Sequence record: OR083247.1
Length of the DNA: 64,000 bases
DNA from: Escherichia phage Bf23
Reading direction: 5' to 3' (one strand)
Below are positions 3,830-55,508 of the stretch, piece by piece. The notes beneath the pieces are model-generated. The model made no database searches. It worked only from the letters and a program-made list of their open reading frames with translations, and had not been told where the DNA came from. Every line of letters starts with the position of its first letter. The stretch's first letter is position 1. The translations under genes were made by a program, and so were the position numbers.

Positions 3830-3927
3830 GATTATAACTCCTATTGAATTAATTTAAGGGATAAGATTAACATAATGTTAATCGTTATATACCCCAAACT
3901 ACTGGGGTATATAAAGTTAACACTAAG

Positions 3928-4179
3928 TTATAAAACAGCTTCCCATTTTTCGTTGCGTTGAACAACCTTTACAACGTCGCCGGATTTAACGCGAACGCTA
4001 AAAACGGTTTTGCCGTTGTTACTACGTTCATTTTCAGCGTATACCGCGTCGATTGTATCAAACGGCATAAGCGCCACACCTTTAATGCGTTCGGTTTTTC
4101 CGGTTAATTCGTCCGTTTTAGTAACGAAAGGAATAAAAACGGATTGACCAATTTTAGGCGCGGTAATAACGTTTTTCAT
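3928..4179 (-). CDS. hypothetical protein
   Basis: 83-aa ORF, same-strand operon context. Confidence 0.4.
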   Translation of the reverse strand: MKNVITAPKIGQSVFIPFVTKTDELTGKTERIKGVALMPFDTIDAVYAENERSNNGKTVFSVRVKSGDVVKVVQRNEKWEAVL

Positions 4180-4406
4180 AGTATAAACTCCTAGTTATTT
4201 GGGGATTGTTCCGCATTACCTGCTAGAAAGTAGCAGGTAATAAGAAAAAATCCGCTCGCCAATATAATCAATTTAAAGAACTCCACTCAGGCCGCTATAT
4301 CCCAGTTAGGGGGCGGGACACATTATGGTAAGTGCCGACCGTCAAATTGTATCAAGTTATCGCTCTTATCGAACTGGGTACATCTTAAAGCCTATCGGCT
4401 AGGGTG

Positions 4407-5484: not shown

Positions 5485-5750
5485 GGTAAATGGGTAGTGT
5501 TAACAACTGCAATCAATTTTAAGCGGCCTAAAACGCTTTCTAACGAGCTAAATGCGGTGGGGTAATATTAAAGTAAAGCCTTCACCCGTCGCCCTGGTGG
5601 CTTCGCCGTGTTTTGCTCTTTACTATACCGCTGCGCGGTTAACATAAAAATAAGCGTTAGGCAAGGAAAATAAAAAGGTAAAATAATATTTGCCCCTAGA
5701 AAGAAAATACCTTTATCATTCACTCACCGATTAACGAGGGAGGCCAACAA

Positions 5751-6743
5751 ATGAGGCTATATAAACCAGATAACGCAACCGTCTTAAAAGGTGCGCTGCG
5801 TAACCTGCTGGACGGTAGCAGAACAACCAGCATTAAACACTTTGTTAACAAGGCCGAAGATATTCACCAAAACTTTTTTGATGATTTCGATGCCTATGAT
5901 ATGAGTAGTTTTTTACAACTGTATAAGCAAGGGGCAACGCTTGTTTTGTATAATCGAGATAATCACCTGCTTACTAGTAGGGGGCCGGATACCGATTTCA
6001 TAATTGTAAAAGGTAGCACAGTAAAAGCCTATGACACTGGAGCGGGCTTAGAAGTTTTTTCAATAGAAAACTATGAAGCCAACCCCAATGATCTTTATGA
6101 CGTTGAAAACTTTCTTGATTCATTTTGGCGTTATTTATCCGTTGGCTGGAATCGGTCAATTGGTGACGGGTATCGTCTGGCGGCTGTAATGACCTTTGAT
6201 GATGATGGCAATTTTTTGCTACCGTCGGAAGTATACCCATACGTATATGATGGGGATATAGAAAGCGCGGGCTTTTCTTTCTGGAAAGAGGGGAATCAGC
6301 CTATTGACAACACGGAAAAACATGCTGTAAATTCTAACACTCAAAGCGTTAATACTCAAATCACTGAAAACAAAGGAAAAAACACCATGACCAAGATCGC
6401 TAATATTGTTGCCGCTAATAAATCCGCTGTTGTAAACGCTGCAAAACTGGAAGCGGGTAAAATTGCACTGACTCAAATTACGAAAGTAGCGGCTAAAAAA
6501 GCGCCGTTCATGATCAAAGGCTATATTGATACGCCGATTGGTCGAGTAGTGATTGCCAACCTGCTTAGCGTAGCGGTTGACCAGTACGCCCCGAGTAACC
6601 AGAAAGCGAAAGCGGTAGCAGGGGCAGCTATGGAAGCGGCAATGCTAGAAATGGTGCAAAGTTTTAACATCGCTGAGATGATCGATGAAATGGTAAAAGG
6701 TATCGATATTTCTACTTTCACCGTTAACAACGAAAGCGAGTAA
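5751..6743 (+). CDS. hypothetical protein
   Basis: 330-aa ORF; RBS 'gaggga' upstream; Ala/Lys-rich C-terminal third. Confidence 0.5.
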   Translation: MRLYKPDNATVLKGALRNLLDGSRTTSIKHFVNKAEDIHQNFFDDFDAYDMSSFLQLYKQGATLVLYNRDNHLLTSRGPDTDFIIVKGSTVKAYDTGAGLEVFSIENYEANPNDLYDVENFLDSFWRYLSVGWNRSIGDGYRLAAVMTFDDDGNFLLPSEVYPYVYDGDIESAGFSFWKEGNQPIDNTEKHAVNSNTQSVNTQITENKGKNTMTKIANIVAANKSAVVNAAKLEAGKIALTQITKVAAKKAPFMIKGYIDTPIGRVVIANLLSVAVDQYAPSNQKAKAVAGAAMEAAMLEMVQSFNIAEMIDEMVKGIDISTFTVNNESE

Positions 6744-6808: not shown

Positions 6809-7303
6809 ATGGCTGAAGAAAAATATGGCTTCTCACTGGGAGAAGTGAGCACGGCAAAACATGATATGATCATTTTGGTCGATTGCCATACTGGCTATTG
6901 CGGAGAAGGTTGGACGGAGGAACATTTTGTTCCAGCTGGCTGTAATCTGGACGCTTTCGCTCAGGAAATGGCTATTGATAATGCTTCTCGTTTTGGTAGC
7001 GATGGTTACGAAGACGAAGAAACTGGCGAATGGTATGAAAATGAAAACGTATATGCAAGCCTTTATCATTATCAGCTAAGTAAATCCGGCACATATGTAA
7101 ACGGCGGCGATCCTATTAATTCCGTCATGAAATTAATTATTAAATATGGCGGAGTAGAGATAGTTGGTAACAAAGCGGTAATATACGCAAACCGATTAAA
7201 ACAGCTTGTTTATATTCCTGATAGTACCCGATGGGATGAATATGCTGTTTTGCATGACGAATTGAAACGATGTTTCAATATTGAAACCTTACAAGTAGTC
7301 TAA
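6809..7303 (+). CDS. hypothetical protein
   Basis: 164-aa ORF with RBS 'aggagg'. Confidence 0.5.
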   Translation: MAEEKYGFSLGEVSTAKHDMIILVDCHTGYCGEGWTEEHFVPAGCNLDAFAQEMAIDNASRFGSDGYEDEETGEWYENENVYASLYHYQLSKSGTYVNGGDPINSVMKLIIKYGGVEIVGNKAVIYANRLKQLVYIPDSTRWDEYAVLHDELKRCFNIETLQVV

Positions 7304-7407
7304 TGTAAAGTTTTGTAAAGGTCGCCTTTTATGGTGGCCTTTTTTGTTATAATGCTTTTACACCAAAACGGTGGATTGAAAATTTCCCAAAAATTTGGAG
7401 GCTTAAA

Positions 7408-7638
7408 ATGGTTGCATATTCTTCTTCTGACGCTCTTTTCACTGGAAAAGGCTGGGTATCAAATCGCTGGATCATTCATGAAATGGTGCAAGAATACGGC
7501 ATTGCTAAAACTTACACTACCATCCAGGCGCTTTATGATAATGATCAAATTGATCAGCAAACGGCTGGTTTTTTGCTGGATACCCTGAAAGCGGAGCACT
7601 GTACTAAAAAACAAGCCGCCAAAATTGTTTTAATGTAA
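7408..7638 (+). CDS. hypothetical protein
   Basis: 76-aa ORF with RBS 'ggagg'; hairpin after stop. Confidence 0.45.
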   Translation: MVAYSSSDALFTGKGWVSNRWIIHEMVQEYGIAKTYTTIQALYDNDQIDQQTAGFLLDTLKAEHCTKKQAAKIVLM

Positions 7639-7836
7639 TTAATAACGGGGCGTTACTTTCGCCCCGCTAACTAGGAGAATGAAAATGGTTATTTTTCGAG
7701 CTATTCTAGCAGGTATCTTGGGCGCTATTTTATCCCTTTTTGCTATAGCTTTTGGCGTTCACGCGGTTACTATTGGTGCTGGCATTGCTGTATTTTCTTA
7801 TCTGCTGGGCTGCATGACTAGTAAAGGAGAATAAAA

Positions 7837-49850: not shown

Positions 49851-49879
49851 TTGACATCCGCCCTCGAATGAGTTATAAT
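49851..49879 (+). promoter_or_regulatory. consensus sigma-70 promoter TTGACA-17-TATAAT upstream of nrdD
   Basis: exact consensus hexamers with 17-bp spacer. Confidence 0.65.
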
Positions 49880-49908: not shown

Positions 49909-51783
49909 ATGAATCGTAATGAAGAACTAAAGTATAAAGAAATGCAGGCGTTAATTAGAAACTGCAAAGAGATTATCGAAGGATCAGCAGATGAAGAGCT
50001 GCTGTTTAATAATGCCAATAAACCCTCAGAACGTTTCCCTACACAAAGGGATATGCTTGCAGGGGAATTGAGTAAATATCTGATTCTAGAAGAAATGCCA
50101 ATTCAGATTCGAAATGCTCATATGATTGGAGATATTCATTTCCATGATGCTGATTACGCTGCTTTAGGTATGACTAACTGTTGTCTAGTAGCTCTGGAAG
50201 ATATGCTAAAAAATGGTATGAAAGTTGGTAATGCTGAAATTAGTACACCAAATTCTATTACTACTGCGGCTGCTATTACAGCTCAGATTATCACACAGGT
50301 TAGCTCCCATCAGTATGGCGGTACTTCTGTAGACCGATTAGATGAAGTATTGGCTCCTTATGTTCGTAAGTCTTATGATAAGAATCATGCGTTTGCAAAA
50401 CGTTGGACTAAGGATGAAGCCAAAGCATCAGTAATGGCTACTGAGATGACTGAAAAAGAAGTCTATGATGCTTGTCAGGGTCTAGAGTATGAAATCAATA
50501 CGATGTTCAATTCTAATGGTCAGAGTCCATTTATTACCTTTGGTTTTGGTCTAGGAACTTCTTGGGAAGCACGTCTAGTACAGAAAGCAATACTGAAAGT
50601 ACGTATGGATGGCCTAGGCATCAATAAACGTACAGCTATCTTTCCGAAACTGGTGTTTGTTCTGCGTGATGGCGTAAATATGAAGCCAGGAGATGTTAAT
50701 TATGACATCAAGAAGTTAGCTATGAAATGTACTGCTGAACGTATGTATCCCGACTATATCAGCTACGATAAGGTTGTGGAAGTTACTGGTGACTATAAAG
50801 TTTCTATGGGCTGCCGTTCATTCCTGGCTGCTACAGAGGATGGTGAAACTGCCGGTCGTAATAACTTAGGTGTTGTTTCTGTAAACTTGCCTAGAATTGC
50901 TATCGAAGCTGAAGGGAATATTGATCTATTCTTTGATTTGCTTGAGCTACGTGTGGATACAGCGTTAAAAGCATTGGAGTGGAGAGTTGATCGCTTAAAA
51001 TACATTCAAGCTAAAGCTGCGCCTATCCTCTATATGTCAGGAGCCTTTGGATTACGCTTAGGGCCTGATGAATATGTATTCGATCATTTCTATAACCGTG
51101 CTTCTGTATCTCTGGGGTATATTGGTTGCCATGAAATGCTACAGTTCATGTTTGGCAAAGATGTAGATACAATGTCTGAGACCTGCATCAAGTTTGTTCA
51201 GCGTGTGCTGCAGTACATGCGGGATAGGGTCGATCAGAAGAAGGAAGAGACTAAGTTAGGTTATAGCCTGTATGCTACACCATCAGAGTCCCTATGTGAT
51301 CGCTTTTGTCGTCTAGACCGTGAATATTTCCCGGAGCATGAAGATATTCTGTCCAAAGGATACTACACTAACTCTCACCACCTTGATGTGGAACGTAAAG
51401 TTGCTCCTAACGTGAAATTTGATTATGAATCTAACTTTACTCCGATTGCTTCTGGTGGATGTATCTCTTATGTAGAACTACCAGATATGAAACGATTCCC
51501 GGATGCACTGGAATGGGTTATTAATTATGCTGCTAGTAAGGTTCATTACTTCGGTATTAATACTCCAGTGGATTCCTGTGGTAAATGTGGATTCTTAGGT
51601 GAAACAGTAGCATCCGAAGATGGATTCAAGTGCCCTATCTGTGGTAATCATGACCCTGAAACTCTTGAAGTAACTCGTCGAGTTTGTGGGTATCTTGGAA
51701 ATCCAGGTGCTCGTCCGTTTAACCCAGGAAAACAACATGAGGTTATGGGCAGGGTGAAACATCAGGATATTCGAGCTAAATAA
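49909..51783 (+). CDS. nrdD: anaerobic ribonucleoside-triphosphate reductase
   Basis: 624-aa ORF; C-terminal zinc ribbon 'CGKCGF...CPICG' and glycyl-radical motif 'RVCGYLG'. Confidence 0.8.
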   Translation: MNRNEELKYKEMQALIRNCKEIIEGSADEELLFNNANKPSERFPTQRDMLAGELSKYLILEEMPIQIRNAHMIGDIHFHDADYAALGMTNCCLVALEDMLKNGMKVGNAEISTPNSITTAAAITAQIITQVSSHQYGGTSVDRLDEVLAPYVRKSYDKNHAFAKRWTKDEAKASVMATEMTEKEVYDACQGLEYEINTMFNSNGQSPFITFGFGLGTSWEARLVQKAILKVRMDGLGINKRTAIFPKLVFVLRDGVNMKPGDVNYDIKKLAMKCTAERMYPDYISYDKVVEVTGDYKVSMGCRSFLAATEDGETAGRNNLGVVSVNLPRIAIEAEGNIDLFFDLLELRVDTALKALEWRVDRLKYIQAKAAPILYMSGAFGLRLGPDEYVFDHFYNRASVSLGYIGCHEMLQFMFGKDVDTMSETCIKFVQRVLQYMRDRVDQKKEETKLGYSLYATPSESLCDRFCRLDREYFPEHEDILSKGYYTNSHHLDVERKVAPNVKFDYESNFTPIASGGCISYVELPDMKRFPDALEWVINYAASKVHYFGINTPVDSCGKCGFLGETVASEDGFKCPICGNHDPETLEVTRRVCGYLGNPGARPFNPGKQHEVMGRVKHQDIRAK

Positions 51784-51790
51784 GCTAAAC

Positions 51791-51823
51791 AGCCAGGTTG
51801 CTAGTCGACCTGGCTTTTATTTT
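51791..51823 (+). terminator. rho-independent terminator after nrdD
   Basis: hairpin AGCCAGGT...ACCTGGCT followed by a T-run. Confidence 0.6.
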
Positions 51824-51825
51824 AT

Positions 51826-51854
51826 TTGCTTTCAGCTAAAAATATATGTATAAT
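51826..51854 (+). promoter_or_regulatory. T5-type early promoter (TTGCTT-17-TATAAT)
   Basis: conserved cassette plus leader 'agatttataaatttgagaggag'. Confidence 0.65.
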
Positions 51855-51882
51855 AGATTTATAAATTTGAGAGGAGAAAGAT

Positions 51883-52164
51883 ATGAGCGAATTGCTTCCG
51901 AAAGTAGATATTTCTCATCTTGGAGAGCCTAGTGAAGAACGTAAGGCTCTTGATTGGCTAGGTTACTTTGATTATCGTCGTGTTGTTGCAACATGGAATG
52001 ATAAGAAAGTTAAGAAGTTTCGGGTACATTATGTAGGTAAAGACAAGTGGCTCTGGATTGATTATGAAGAATCGAAGGGGTCTACTAAGGCTGTGAAAAT
52101 TTATTGTATGTATGGGTATTATTATGCTCACTGTGATAAGAATGAATTTACAGTACAGAACTAA
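51883..52164 (+). CDS. hypothetical protein
   Basis: 93-aa ORF with RBS 'gaggag'. Confidence 0.5.
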   Translation: MSELLPKVDISHLGEPSEERKALDWLGYFDYRRVVATWNDKKVKKFRVHYVGKDKWLWIDYEESKGSTKAVKIYCMYGYYYAHCDKNEFTVQN

Positions 52165-52173
52165 GGAACAAGA

Positions 52174-52377
52174 ATGAAAAACGTAAAACATCTTAAATAT
52201 CGCTTAATCTATAATGGACGTATGGAAACTGAAGAGCTAGCTCAATTAGCTATTAACTCTAATGAGGTTATGGTGCGTGCGCTAGCAATTGAAAAGTTGC
52301 GGGCTTCTTATGAAAGTCGTATTATGGAACTAGAGGAGAAACTTTATGGCATTCTCGAAGCCGATGCTACCCGATAA
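52174..52377 (+). CDS. hypothetical protein
   Basis: 67-aa ORF. Confidence 0.4.
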   Translation: MKNVKHLKYRLIYNGRMETEELAQLAINSNEVMVRALAIEKLRASYESRIMELEEKLYGILEADATR

Positions 52378-52567
52378 TGGCTTAAATGCTGCGCTGGAAA
52401 ATGCATTGATGCAGCAGTGGGAGGCTGGATATAAGGATGGGGTTGAATCTTGTGCGAAAATAATGGATATAATGGCTAATTCTGTAGTTGGGAAAGCCCA
52501 TCCAGAAGTATCTGATATACTCCATAACCTTAGTAAAAACTTCAGAGAGCAGGTGAAAAATGCGTAG
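52346..52567 (+). CDS. hypothetical protein
   Basis: 73-aa ORF. Confidence 0.4.
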   Translation: MAFSKPMLPDNGLNAALENALMQQWEAGYKDGVESCAKIMDIMANSVVGKAHPEVSDILHNLSKNFREQVKNA

Positions 52568-53396
52568 ATTAATTATTATTAGTGGTGCAGGTTTGAGTGT
52601 TGAAAGTGGTGTACGAGCCTTCCGTACTGATACTGCTAGTGGTAAAGCATTGTGGGATGATTATGACTTAGAAGAGGTATGTAATATTCATGCCTTTCGT
52701 GGTAATTTTTATCATAAAACCCACACGTTTTACAACAAACGTCGTGAAGAGTTAGAAACTGTTGAACCCAATCTTGCACACCTGCGTATTGGTGAATGGT
52801 ATAAGAAATATCCGGGTCAAGTAGTAAACTTAACTACCAACGTTGATGACCTTATTGAGCGTGCTGGCGTTCCACATAGTGACATTCTGCACATTCATGG
52901 GTATTTAAAAGAGATTGTTGTAGCTGATAGCTACAATAGTAGCAATAAACGAGTTATTGATGTTGGGTATAACTCTATTGACCCAGATGATTATAAATGG
53001 GTTAAACCTAATGTAGTCTTCTTCGGAGAACATGCTCCAGCATATGCAGAAATGTACAATGTTTTTGATGGTATTACCAGTCAAGATATGATCATTGTGG
53101 TTGGTTGCTCTAACCAAGTAATTAACTTCTACTGGGAATTATTCCCTGTTCTTAATCTGACTGCTGCAAAACTTATGGTAGTTAACTACTACGATAGTGC
53201 CTTAGCGGCGGAACCAGGCTATCAAGGTATGACTCGTAGTGATATGTACCAACTGGAAGATCGTGGTATTCCTTACTGGAGTAAAGGTGCGGTAGATGCT
53301 TTCAGTGACCCTGGTTTTATTGCTCGTGTGGAAGCTCATCTAGAGGGTAGGCCTTATGTGCCGGAGAGAAGGGGAAACAGATATGTCCATAGTTAA
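52560..53396 (+). CDS. Sir2-like NAD-dependent deacetylase / NADase family protein
   Basis: 278-aa ORF; N-terminal 'IISGAGLSVESGVRAFRTD' matches the sirtuin NAD-binding motif GAGIS-ESG-IP-FR. Confidence 0.55.
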   Translation: MRRLIIISGAGLSVESGVRAFRTDTASGKALWDDYDLEEVCNIHAFRGNFYHKTHTFYNKRREELETVEPNLAHLRIGEWYKKYPGQVVNLTTNVDDLIERAGVPHSDILHIHGYLKEIVVADSYNSSNKRVIDVGYNSIDPDDYKWVKPNVVFFGEHAPAYAEMYNVFDGITSQDMIIVVGCSNQVINFYWELFPVLNLTAAKLMVVNYYDSALAAEPGYQGMTRSDMYQLEDRGIPYWSKGAVDAFSDPGFIARVEAHLEGRPYVPERRGNRYVHS

Positions 53397-53565
53397 ATCT
53401 GTATATACACATCCCGATGATATATTTGTATGGGCGGATGGTAGTTGGTGCTATCGATGTGAGCTATGGGAAATGGACTATAAATCCGATGACTATGGTG
53501 TCATATATGTTGATACAGTTGAGTATGATACGTTCTTAGAAAGGGACAAAAATGAAAATAAGTAA
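53383..53565 (+). CDS. hypothetical protein
   Basis: start trimmed to Met with RBS 'gagaagggga'. Confidence 0.35.
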   Translation: MSIVKSVYTHPDDIFVWADGSWCYRCELWEMDYKSDDYGVIYVDTVEYDTFLERDKNENK

Positions 53566-54058
53566 TACTCCAATTATTTTTCTAGATATTGATGGGGTGC
53601 TCAACTCGAGCATCTCCCATCACCATGCACCTGATGATGAAAAGATTTTCTTTGGAAGTGACTGGGTCTTTAAACCGCTTCTCAAGGCTTTTCAGGACTT
53701 TATTCGTCCTTCTCCAATAATGATTGTTGGGGTATCTTCATGGTTCTCTGTTAGGAATGAGGTGGAGAACGTTCAGATTATGACCGGATTAGATCTTATC
53801 GATCGTTTTCTTGGTACAACGGATTTTACTGGTGGTGGATTATCTAGAGGTAATTCTGTTCTTCGCTTCGTTGAAAAGCATAAGCTCAAACATTGGTGTG
53901 TGCTGGATGACGCTGGTGCTATGATGTACCAGTATCCAACGGTTATAGTCAACGGTAGAACTGGAATAAATCTTCAAGATTTAAGAGCTGTTAGCTATAT
54001 GCTAGAATTTAGCCCAGATCTTGAAATGTGTAAATCCTTACAACAATTTAAGGTGTAA
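53552..54058 (+). CDS. HAD-like phosphatase
   Basis: 168-aa ORF; N-terminal 'IIFLDIDGVLNS' HAD motif I, C-terminal 'VLDD'. Confidence 0.5.
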   Translation: MKISNTPIIFLDIDGVLNSSISHHHAPDDEKIFFGSDWVFKPLLKAFQDFIRPSPIMIVGVSSWFSVRNEVENVQIMTGLDLIDRFLGTTDFTGGGLSRGNSVLRFVEKHKLKHWCVLDDAGAMMYQYPTVIVNGRTGINLQDLRAVSYMLEFSPDLEMCKSLQQFKV

Positions 54059-54060
54059 AT

Positions 54061-54489
54061 ATGTTCAATAATGTATTCTCTAAAGAAGCTAACCCAATTT
54101 TGGTTAATTTTTGGCGTACTCTTCCAGCCAACCTGTACAATGAGGCTATTAATGCTCTGAAAATATGGTGTGAGAATAATGAAATCTCCTTTGCTTTTAA
54201 GGGTGAGATTGAAGAAGCTCCCTGTATTGGTTTAATTGTGCAGGTAGAGGATGGTTTGGAAGAGATTGTCGGCTGGAAAGAGTTGGATGAAATGGGGTTG
54301 GTTTTTGCATTAAACTATAAGCTATTTATGCCCAATAAACACCGTATTGTTGTTAACTATAAAACCAGTGAATCTCCGGGCTTTCAAGTTAATGAACATT
54401 ACGGTTGGTCTTACTCACCGGAAGAAGTAAATGATGGTATCCAAAAACTTCGTCGTTTTGGTTATCAAATTCCGGGTTTAACCGCCTAA
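54061..54489 (+). CDS. hypothetical protein, paralog A of a tandem pair
   Basis: 142-aa ORF; shares 'PCIG', 'E(L/M)xxMGL(V/I)xALN(Y/F)xLF' and C-terminal 'PGL' with 54499-54891. Confidence 0.5.
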   Translation: MFNNVFSKEANPILVNFWRTLPANLYNEAINALKIWCENNEISFAFKGEIEEAPCIGLIVQVEDGLEEIVGWKELDEMGLVFALNYKLFMPNKHRIVVNYKTSESPGFQVNEHYGWSYSPEEVNDGIQKLRRFGYQIPGLTA

Positions 54490-54498
54490 GGGGGCACA

Positions 54499-54891
54499 AT
54501 GGAACAAGTATATTGGCGTCAGATTGATCCTAGTTTGGTGAAGCGTGCGGAGAAGCTGCTACAACGTTGGTTGGGGGTAAGACAAGCCTCCTTCACTTTT
54601 CCGGAGCAGCAAATAGACGATCCCTGTATTGGTGTTTTCCTATCAGGCTACGCTAGGGAATGGGAATTGGATTGGAATGAGTTGTCTGCTATGGGTTTAA
54701 TTGTTGCACTAAATTTCTCTTTGTTCCATCCACGTGGTTTGGCCCTATGTCGTGTGCCTGATGACGGTTGTTCGCCCCATCTTTTACAGGTGGAAGATGA
54801 TATTTGGGAGTACACTCCAGATATTCTCAAAGAAGCTAAAGAACAGTTAAACCATGTTGGGATCTATGTTCCAGGCTTGAATGATGAATGA
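54499..54891 (+). CDS. hypothetical protein, paralog B of a tandem pair
   Basis: 130-aa ORF with RBS 'aaggggg'; paralogous to 54061-54489. Confidence 0.5.
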   Translation: MEQVYWRQIDPSLVKRAEKLLQRWLGVRQASFTFPEQQIDDPCIGVFLSGYAREWELDWNELSAMGLIVALNFSLFHPRGLALCRVPDDGCSPHLLQVEDDIWEYTPDILKEAKEQLNHVGIYVPGLNDE

Positions 54892-55508
54892 TTTTTATTA
54901 GCTGAACTCTGATTACCGAGTCATTTTGGCTCGGTTTTCTCTGTGCTTAAAGACACTGATAGCACCTTTGGGAAAAATTTACTTGCATGATGCCCAAAAT
55001 CTTGATATAATATTTATATTGAATTGAGAGACATTAGTAAAAATTGATTTTGCTAATTTTTCTTGTTTACAATCCGCGATACGGAACAGTTAGGCTGCCC
55101 CATTAAGGGTTGTTTTAACTATTACTAGTGTTTATATTGCATTAGTTAATCTTCAATTAAGTGATCTGTGTACCCTGAATTCGGAAAGGTAAATCCAAAC
55201 CGTGCATATTTAGCTCGTTATATAGGCAGAGTTTTATATGGGGGTGCGAACGAAAAGAGCAGCGAATGGCGGCACGTACAGTAGTCACCTACCAATAGGA
55301 TAGTGAGGACAAATAGAATCGGCTTAGCGGCCAATGACCTAGGTTCTATTCTGTATATGAGCGAAGAGAGCACAGCACTGAGATATGATAACTTATTCAT
55401 ATTGTTTGATGATAATTGATGTTTACGTAAATAGTAGTAATAGTTGTTCTATTCTTTCTGAATAGTCCTAAAGAAAAGATTTCGATTAACCAACATAGGA
55501 GTATTGTT

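Follow-up and report, generated by a model that had tools for sequence, protein, structure and literature searches.

Why would a lytic phage encode a sirtuin, and what would such an enzyme do next to a phosphatase? The question arises at positions 52560-54891 of a 64,000-nucleotide stretch of Escherichia phage Bf23 (sequence record OR083247.1; hereafter the window), where four open reading frames (ORFs) for proteins of 278, 168, 142, and 130 residues lie on the + strand between nrdD and a replication ATPase. The initial annotation, made from the sequence alone, read them as a compact module of a Sir2-like protein, a HAD-type phosphatase, and two tandem paralogs. All four are conserved genes, they and both flanking genes lie where that annotation had placed them, and the motifs it quoted are present: GAGLSVESGVRAFRTD in the sirtuin, FLDIDGVL in the phosphatase, PCIG and MGL-x-ALN in both paralogs. 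The evidence below suggests that Sir2 and HAD form a functional pair and that this pair, rather than all four genes, is the core of the block. It probably serves RNA-end repair or the housekeeping of nicotinamide adenine dinucleotide (NAD) and ADP-ribose; our preferred and more specific reading, that the block is the tail of a T5-like early accessory operon in which Sir2-HAD plays a Tpt1-like role in RNA repair, is offered tentatively, as a proposal short of an even bet.

The first protein matches Pfam SIR2 (PF02146) over profile positions 1-178 of 180 (E=5.7e-25; 88.7 bits, cut-off 24) and phrog_2162 (E=4e-121); among solved structures, E. coli CobB ranks first (1S5P; E=7e-18), ahead of archaeal Sir2 and human SIRT5. 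The Sir2 fold claimed for it is genuine, and a check for lost fold or catalytic residues found the NAD loop, the Asn/Asp pair, and the His intact. In an alignment of the window protein, phage homologs down to ~50% identity, and E. coli CobB, the NAD loop GAGxSxxSG..FR is invariant (G9, A10, G11, S13, S16, G17, F21, and R22); N94 and D96 of TxNxD and H113/G114 of HxHG, which holds the catalytic His, are invariant in the phage clade and CobB alike. Also invariant, and shared with CobB and SIRT5, is FYNxRR (F57, Y58, N59, R61, and R62, aligned with CobB FYNARR), which forms the Tyr-x-x-Arg pocket; in these class III enzymes, the Tyr-x-x-Arg pair binds an acidic group and is the signature of activity on succinyl- and malonyl-lysine. 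Invariant too is the FGE loop, and the acyl-lysine tunnel retains its Val. Several features set the phage protein apart from CobB and SIRT5: (i) the Gln of TQNxD is replaced by Thr (TTNVD); (ii) a phage-specific extension of ~60 residues follows at the C terminus; (iii) the scores fall far below the NCBIfam CobB cut-offs (101.6 bits versus 243 for NF001753; 90.8 versus 320 for NF040867); and (iv) the zinc-binding Cys4 is missing: CobB has four cysteines in the segment that matches H113-F155, the phage protein has none there, and only C41 and C183 in all. The zinc module is lost throughout the phage clade and, to our knowledge, is present in all characterised deacylase sirtuins. Judged by its sequence, Sir2 is a zinc-less, CobB/class III-like sirtuin.

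Could it simply be a CobB-like, NAD-dependent enzyme that strips acetyl or succinyl groups from lysine and so resets the acylation of host or phage proteins during infection (e.g., by reactivating acetyl-CoA synthetase), leaving HAD to handle the by-product or an acyl-phosphate donor? Its nearest solved and curated relatives are the CobB/SIRT5 deacylases, and the class III signature, the FGE loop, and the tunnel Val are all retained; indeed, a deacetylase role has been proposed for zinc-less phage sirtuins, with the T5 homolog noted (Skliros et al., 2016; PMC5107563). The Macro and NARP1 genes found near Sir2 relatives in other phages (see below) could equally recycle O-acyl-ADP-ribose and nicotinamide. 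However, a deacylase would have to do without the zinc module across the whole clade, the CobB equivalog cut-offs are far from reached, the RNA ligase/cREC/kinase operons that house Sir2 orthologs have no obvious link to acylation, and the conserved phosphatase partner is left unexplained. We consider this explanation unlikely.

Nor does Sir2 look like a weapon. The initial annotation had likened it to the NAD-consuming effectors of bacterial defence systems; no PADLOC model of a defence-type SIR2 matched it at E<=0.01, its nearest relatives are of the CobB/SIRT5 type, and a defence-type effector was rejected on these grounds. With the defence SIR2 NAD hydrolases, or NADases (ThsA, DSR1/2, SIR2-HerA, SIR2-APAZ), it shares the Sir2 superfamily and NAD+ as a substrate; unlike them, it is a stand-alone, single-domain protein of 278 residues without a sensor or partner domain, has CobB-type affinity, and is encoded in the early operon of a lytic phage, with the HAD phosphatase and small ORFs as neighbors. 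The clade is widespread, with 997 phage records (tblastn) that include T5, rV5-like, phAPEC8-like, Sugarlandvirus, and jumbo phages. The T5-type protein is 57-64% identical to those of rV5-like phages and ~52% identical to that of the sister genus Epseptimavirus, which carries an insertion of ~25 residues after residue 47; yet the adjoining HAD is 88% identical between Tequintavirus-type and Epseptimavirus phages. A divergent sirtuin flanked by so conserved a gene suggests that Sir2 is an exchangeable cassette at a fixed site.

The second protein is a HAD phosphatase, as first proposed, with all four catalytic motifs and a confident model of a HAD Rossmannoid fold with a minimal (C0-like) cap. 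It matches HAD_SAK_2 (PF18143; E=2.1e-20; 73.9 bits, cut-off 27.5), a family titled “HAD domain in Swiss Army Knife RNA repair proteins.” Motifs I-IV (FLDIDGVLN, VSSWF, GGG..RG, and V.DDAG) are invariant, and D12, D14, S62/S63, R99, and D119/D120 are unchanged in 13 homologs down to 37% identity. Its closest structural neighbors among solved folds include MDP-1 and two protein phosphatases, SCP1 and UBLCP1. Capless HAD enzymes have open active sites and accept bulky substrates. Like Sir2, the protein is acidic.

Why treat Sir2 and HAD as a pair? Four observations argue for it: (i) the two ORFs overlap or abut across loci, with direct overlap in several phages, and every intact T5-like locus surveyed has the order nrdD ... 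Sir2 - (small ORF) - HAD; (ii) the two are lost together, since a single deletion in phage DT57C runs from Sir2, most of which is gone, through the small ORF into HAD, whose N-terminal part is missing, and leaves a 90-residue chimera, and SHSML-45 lacks Sir2 and has HAD reduced to residues 64-168, with the downstream genes intact in both; (iii) synteny holds at low identity, as in a 122-kb contig (L027/L094) with Sir2 62% and HAD 43% identical; and (iv) the two co-occur in distant gene islands, on far-diverged phage contigs of IMG/VR (L131 and L141) where Sir2 is 32-39% identical to that of the window and HAD lies within 1-3 kb. DT57C lives without the pair, which must thus be dispensable for laboratory growth; DT57C (L005) and its close relative DT571/2 (L016/L074), in which the locus is intact, are natural comparators. 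The deletion chimeras may also have left a mark on databases: phrog_18062, labelled “Sir2 (NAD-dependent deacetylase),” is the C-terminal half of HAD (E=2.6e-58), and residues 169-216 of Sir2 match it weakly. The label probably originated from the Sir2::HAD chimera of DT57C/SHSML-45, and as a result many RefSeq T5-like genomes call the HAD gene a second “Sir2.”

What does the pair act on? A prediction is already in print. Iyer, Burroughs, Anantharaman, and Aravind (2022; PMC9503650) describe a distinct clade of viral sirtuins with three neighborhood types, among them the sirtuin-HAD neighborhood of the T5-like phage SP15, and predict NAD-dependent RNA repair: the viral sirtuin is proposed to act like KptA/Tpt1, which remove RNA 2'-phosphates in an NAD+-dependent reaction. 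The window contains what defines that neighborhood, a phage-clade sirtuin adjoining a HAD_SAK-type phosphatase in a T5-like phage; the pair is the same, from the same phage group, with Sir2 followed by HAD_SAK_2 and no structural difference from their description. The window copy is therefore a typical member of an already described neighborhood, and its sequence is not new; annotation of the Sir2-HAD neighborhood dates back to the T5 genome papers and its explicit description to 2022, and the initial annotation did not consider the RNA-repair prediction. For the T5-like type, the available text of Iyer et al. names the sirtuin and HAD alone, with no mention of the small ORF, the tandem paralogs, or the adjacency of HAD to NARP1 genes described below.

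The case for RNA comes from elsewhere in the clade. In rV5-like and related ~147-kb phages, genes for a phosphoesterase, an RnlA-type RNA ligase, cREC, a kinase, Sir2 (57-64% identical), and MazG follow one another; our survey of these loci reproduces the second neighborhood type of Iyer et al. Some distant HADs likewise adjoin RnlA, a kinase, and a phosphoesterase. KptA itself (E. coli query) is rare, occurring in 98 phage records, mostly of jumbo phages; no T5-like phage appeared among the 30 sampled matches or in the organism tallies, no KptA was seen in the sampled medium-sized coliphages that bear the Sir2 clade, and two jumbo-phage KptA loci (a sample of two) share no seed genes with the Sir2 neighborhoods.

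A second line of evidence, from the phosphatase, points to NAD metabolism. In Serratia phage vB_SmaM-ChuuTotoro (ON287369; L006, 6001-9217) and in a related contig (L007, 6001-9569), a HAD_SAK_2 gene whose product is 37-39% identical to that of the window immediately precedes Adps-like and Namat-like genes, and no Sir2 gene occurs within 6 kb of it. The ChuuTotoro gene pair (phosphoribosyl pyrophosphate synthetase-like plus NAPRTase-family) has the composition of NARP1 (Adps plus Namat). NARP1 was demonstrated in phage JohannRWettstein, whose NAPRTase-family protein shares 40% identity with the ChuuTotoro one. The HAD-NARP1 adjacency is a new lead, with no description found in the papers examined. 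NARP1 operons are known to recruit a phosphatase for ADP-ribose-1''-phosphate, the Macro-domain protein Adpp (10.64898/2026.01.28.702374), and NARP1 loci more generally recruit enzymes, Adpp and the glycosidase RyDEP, that turn unusual NAD+ breakdown products into ADP-ribose. In Aeromonas phage phiAS5, HAD adjoins DUF4326, which is predicted to process or trim the terminal phosphates of ADP-ribose. The position of HAD upstream of NAD-rebuilding genes thus suggests that it is an ADP-ribose-phosphate phosphatase, and the ChuuTotoro-type protein may be a HAD-type counterpart of Adpp.

The distant islands that contain both proteins bear the same stamp. L131 (139-11813) reads NUDIX - Namat-like - NADAR - Macro - HAD_SAK_2 (5504-6067) - Sir2 (7001-7753) - Adps-like - Thg1-like - metallophosphoesterase; L141 (721-9950) reads Namat-like - NADAR - HAD (3882-4355) - dCMP deaminase - Sir2 (6995-7744) - Adps-like. 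Thg1-like proteins belong to a family of polymerases that repair tRNA 5' ends. Both islands are interrupted by homing endonucleases. The suggestion in the initial annotation that the locus bears on NAD/ADP-ribose pools thus draws support from gene context in other phages. With NARP1-AP (Adps plus Namat plus Adpp; Osterman et al., 2026 preprint), the ChuuTotoro-type, L131, and L141 loci share a phage phosphatase in or next to NAD-reconstitution genes; they differ in that Adpp is a Macro domain and the window protein a HAD, and neither Adps nor Namat is encoded in the 64-kb window, the rest of the phage genome not having been searched.

NAD+ depletion and reconstitution have of late become a main battleground between bacteria and phages, with, for example, SIR2, TIR, and RES NADases on the side of defence and NARP1/2, Adpp, and RyDEP on the side of the phage. 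Might Sir2-HAD belong to this contest, with no RNA involved? HAD would then be a non-Macro analogue of Adpp that acts on ADP-ribose-1''-phosphate, the product of RES-type defences, or on another phosphorylated NAD fragment, and the sirtuin would process an NAD-derived metabolite or immune signal. This reading is favored by the HADs that precede Adps and Namat with no Sir2 nearby, by the Namat-NADAR-Macro-Adps-NUDIX islands in which Sir2 and HAD both sit, and by the readiness of NARP1 loci to take on accessory enzymes that make ADP-ribose from odd NAD products; that both proteins are acidic, as metabolite enzymes would be, also fits. But the missing NARP1 means that the genes of the window would not rebuild ADP-ribose into NAD+, and the sirtuin itself consumes NAD+; we know of no sirtuin reaction that regenerates NAD+ or degrades cyclic ADP-ribose signals. 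The nearest solved folds of HAD include protein phosphatases, and the RnlA operons of the Sir2 orthologs would go unexplained. On balance this alternative seems rather improbable, and we hold the same view of its most novel form: a new NAD+ arms-race pathway, in place of RNA repair, in which HAD, as a non-Macro ADP-ribose-phosphate phosphatase, would oppose RES-type (ADP-ribose-1''-phosphate-forming) depletion or feed NARP1, and the sirtuin would catalyse a hitherto undescribed reaction with an NAD-derived metabolite or a phosphate acceptor. Were it true, the ChuuTotoro HAD upstream of Adps and Namat would be a second, HAD-based “NARP1 with associated phosphatase.” A related idea, that Sir2 runs the RES reaction backwards (ADP-ribose-1''-phosphate plus nicotinamide to NAD+), was set aside after a rough thermodynamic estimate; the phosphatase partner would also pull the wrong way.

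How might the preferred reading, NAD+-dependent RNA-end repair, accommodate both contexts? In the scheme that we propose, the sirtuin would (i) bind NAD+ and cleave off nicotinamide, as its intact NAD-binding and catalytic residues suggest, and (ii) move the ADP-ribose to an anionic, phosphate-type acceptor held in the Tyr-x-x-Arg pocket. The acceptor would most likely be a 2'-phosphate at the ends of broken tRNA or RNA, making the sirtuin a functional analogue of the unrelated Tpt1/KptA; this step is proposed because orthologs lie in RNA-ligase repair operons and because of the published prediction. Phosphorylated ADP-ribose would (iii) be released, as the 1'',2''-cyclic phosphate and then as ADP-ribose-1''-phosphate, from which (iv) the minimal-cap HAD would remove the remaining phosphomonoester to leave plain ADP-ribose. 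The last step is put forward because HAD homologs lie directly upstream of NARP1 genes; the substrate would be ADP-ribose-1''-phosphate, on the model of yeast Poa1p and phage Adpp, or else a terminal RNA phosphate. As the simplest fit to the RNA-repair and NARP1 contexts, we infer that HAD may hydrolyse phosphorylated ADP-ribose, which would be at once a Tpt1-like by-product and a NARP1 precursor.

The scheme would parallel the by-product pathway of yeast tRNA splicing (Tpt1/KptA, Cpd1, and Poa1p), where NAD+ donates an ADP-ribosyl group to a phosphate and ADP-ribose-1''-phosphate is dephosphorylated afterwards, and the rV5-type operon, with its ligase, kinase, cyclic-phosphate enzyme, and Sir2, mirrors yeast Trl1 plus Tpt1. 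The parallel is one of function and not of descent: Tpt1 has an ADP-ribosyltransferase (ART) fold and Poa1p a Macro fold, whereas the phage proteins are a Rossmann-type sirtuin and a HAD; no homology of Sir2 to the ART fold of Tpt1 was found, only sirtuin families being matched, and functional analogy alone is claimed. The setting also sets the phage sirtuins apart from CobB and SIRT5: their partners in operons are genes of RNA repair and NAD salvage and not of metabolism.

Several observations weigh against RNA repair. The rV5-type partners (RNA ligase, cREC, and kinase) are missing from T5-like phages: none is present in the window, and RnlA occurs in few Salmonella phage records; the pathway would be incomplete, with sealing left to host enzymes. 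T5-like phages already handle tRNA damage through ~20 tRNA genes. The phage Sir2s are acidic, with isoelectric points of 4.6-5.6, and the KptA homologs are neutral to basic (7.1-9.4), which speaks weakly against direct RNA binding; the phage RNA ligase is itself mildly acidic, so charge is a weak clue to RNA binding. In Escherichia phage muut (L229, 2251-13517), an RNA ligase, kinase, and phosphoesterase cluster, NARP1, and an array of 15 tRNA genes lie side by side without Sir2 or cREC; these two look like optional add-ons to a muut-type island, and part of the proximity of Sir2 to NARP1 may be an island effect. The Tyr-x-x-Arg pocket suits succinyl- or malonyl-lysine equally well, and the Macro/NADAR/NARP1 context suits any reaction that converts NAD+ into nicotinamide and an ADP-ribose derivative, protein deacylation included. 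Finally, our search of the literature on T5 and phage sirtuins turned up genome notes, one study combining in silico and transcript data (PMC5107563), and the 2022 comparative-genomics prediction, and in it no enzymatic or genetic data on any member of the clade.

What, then, is at stake? The central question is what chemistry the zinc-less sirtuin of these phages and the HAD beside it carry out within the NAD+ arms race. A function for the clade would assign a role to a very common phage accessory gene (~1,000 records, T5 included); should the sirtuin prove to remove RNA 2'-phosphates, Tpt1 would have an analogue with a sirtuin fold; and the study of HAD might bring to light a second type of ADP-ribose-phosphate phosphatase with which phages counter NAD-depleting immunity.

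Where does this leave the tandem genes downstream of the pair? They are indeed paralogs: both belong to Pfam DUF7415 (PF24187; E=3e-33 and 114.2 bits for paralog A, E=1e-31 and 109 bits for paralog B, cut-off 27), each with two matched stretches, and they are 29.8% identical over 124 residues (tblastn E=3e-14). Residues 68-128 of paralog A, its C-terminal half, match the widespread single-domain form; paralog B has two alpha/beta subdomains, with WNELS..GL..N..HP.GLA..R..G.SP in residues 57-118. Paralog A of SP15 is 97.9% identical to that of the window. An exhaustive profile search recovered 162 relatives, of which ~20 are full-length; most match the C-terminal subdomain alone (~55 residues), in small phage proteins. 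Fusions, found in proteins P0082, P0096, and P0098, are to thymidylate kinase (515 residues) and to the dATP/dGTP pyrophosphohydrolase PF04447 (287 and 307 residues). In 34 non-redundant IMG/VR neighborhoods, mostly on 30-40 kb contigs, with 145 neighboring proteins scanned, the top neighbor is the P2 gpA replication protein (8 hits), and others are helicases, D12 methylase, ribonucleotide reductase, and NUDIX; no Sir2 or HAD_SAK family is among the 25 most frequent.

The initial view of a compact four-gene module, in its boldest form, would make the DUF7415 paralogs regulators or partners of Sir2/HAD, with Sir2 acting as a defence-like NADase effector in host shut-off, superinfection exclusion, or as a decoy. 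Gene order lends it some color: Sir2-(small ORF)-HAD-DUF7415-DUF7415 is fixed in Tequintavirus and Epseptimavirus, Sir2-DUF7415 adjacency is kept in Sugarlandvirus and two further lineages, all the genes share one transcription unit, and, according to the T5 annotation, the Aeromonas phage Aeh1 homologs of HAD and DUF7415 (ORF302c and ORF298c) lie close together. Yet the DUF7415 pair is intact in DT57C despite the Sir2-HAD deletion, a search of the 5-7 kb around Sir2 or HAD in non-T5-like loci turned up no DUF7415 gene, and the single-domain relatives keep company with, or are fused to, the replication and nucleotide enzymes listed above. On these grounds DUF7415 was rejected as a part of the Sir2-HAD system. 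The effector half of the proposal fares no better, given the lack of a PADLOC match; T5 uses an NAD-dependent DNA ligase, so NAD depletion would harm the phage itself. We regard the four-gene module as highly improbable. Two copies of DUF7415 occur in each of Tequintavirus, Epseptimavirus, and Sugarlandvirus, and on this distribution the tandem pair is ancestral to T5-like phages; it appears to be an unrelated, lineage-specific syntenic neighbor of Sir2-HAD, and its function more likely relates to the neighboring genes of replication and nucleotide metabolism. Annotations of DUF7415 in T5-like records as “exonuclease,” “Phage exonuclease (ACLAME 70),” “tail tube protein,” or “tail protein” were rejected, as no profile or fold search supports them.

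How is the block embedded in the genome? The window is the left part of a T5-like genome (Demerecviridae, Tequintavirus); the T5 pre-early genes dmp and A1 stand at its start, and 20 tRNA genes lie within it. Positions 52000-55500 match 529 phage records, with ~93% DNA identity to NBEco001; the region is 92-96% identical to many T5-like phages, and the PHROGs matches of the block proteins have E-values of 1e-56 to 1e-121. The four ORFs of the initial annotation stand, but not as a free-standing block: they belong to the 3' part of a tightly packed early transcription unit of eight ORFs (51883-54891) bounded by terminator-like hairpins (Table 1), and a conserved ORF of ~60 residues between Sir2 and HAD had been overlooked. 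This ORF, which overlaps the Sir2 stop and the HAD start, matches phrog_5116 with E=8e-29 and corresponds to a 183-nt coding sequence in the GEC_vB_N3 annotation; it is found in most T5-like phages and in Sugarlandvirus and is absent from some T5-like phages. The three small ORFs that lead the unit (51883-52567) have no informative Pfam match. The equivalent unit in the T5 record reads terminator, early promoter T5P31, ORF094 - ORF095 - cobb - “Aeh1ORF302c-like” - ORF098 - “Aeh1ORF298c-like,” terminator.

Table 1. Features of the early transcription unit and its flanks (window positions; for the three leading ORFs, PHROGs families are listed in ORF order)
Feature	Position	Strand	Length	Family	Remark
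nrdD	49909-51783				Upstream of the block
Terminator-like hairpin after nrdD	51791..51815	+			10-bp stem with 6 GC pairs, then T-run; upstream boundary of the unit
Small conserved ORF	51883-52164	+		phrog_7953	Leads the unit
Small conserved ORF	52174-52377	+		phrog_5236	
Small conserved ORF	52346-52567	+		phrog_5827	8-nt overlap with the Sir2 start
Sir2 (T5 “cobb”/Sir2-like protein)	52560..53396	+	278 aa	Pfam SIR2; phrog_2162	
Small acidic ORF	53383..53565	+	~60 aa	phrog_5116	Mechanical ORF 53356-53565; likely start 53383
HAD phosphatase	53552..54058	+	168 aa	Pfam HAD_SAK_2	HAD_SAK_2 family
DUF7415 paralog A (T5.106/ORF098)	54061..54489	+	142 aa	Pfam DUF7415; phrog_2502	
DUF7415 paralog B (T5.107, “Aeh1ORF298c-like”)	54499..54891	+	130 aa	Pfam DUF7415	
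Terminator-like hairpin	54915..54935	+			24 nt 3' of paralog B; downstream boundary of the unit; T5 terminator at the equivalent place
Replication ATPase (T5 “obp”/D1)	55509-58298		929 aa	NCBIfam CyRepA1 (6e-35)	Downstream of the block

An Rfam scan of 51700-55600 matched no non-coding RNA family. Between paralog B and the 929-residue protein lie 618 nt (54892-55508) that hold the downstream hairpin and no convincing ORFs; the T5 equivalent also contains the early promoter T5P32. Upstream, a frameshift or else a sequencing error splits nrdD into two adjacent ORFs in one T5-like IMG/VR genome (L069, 4189-5511 and 5513-6160). Facing nrdD in the window is a perfect sigma-70 consensus promoter (TTGACA-17-TATAAT) at 49851-49879; on the opposite strand, a sequence with an 11/12 match (49799-49771) points toward a phoH-like gene, and the two look like a strong divergent pair of early promoters.

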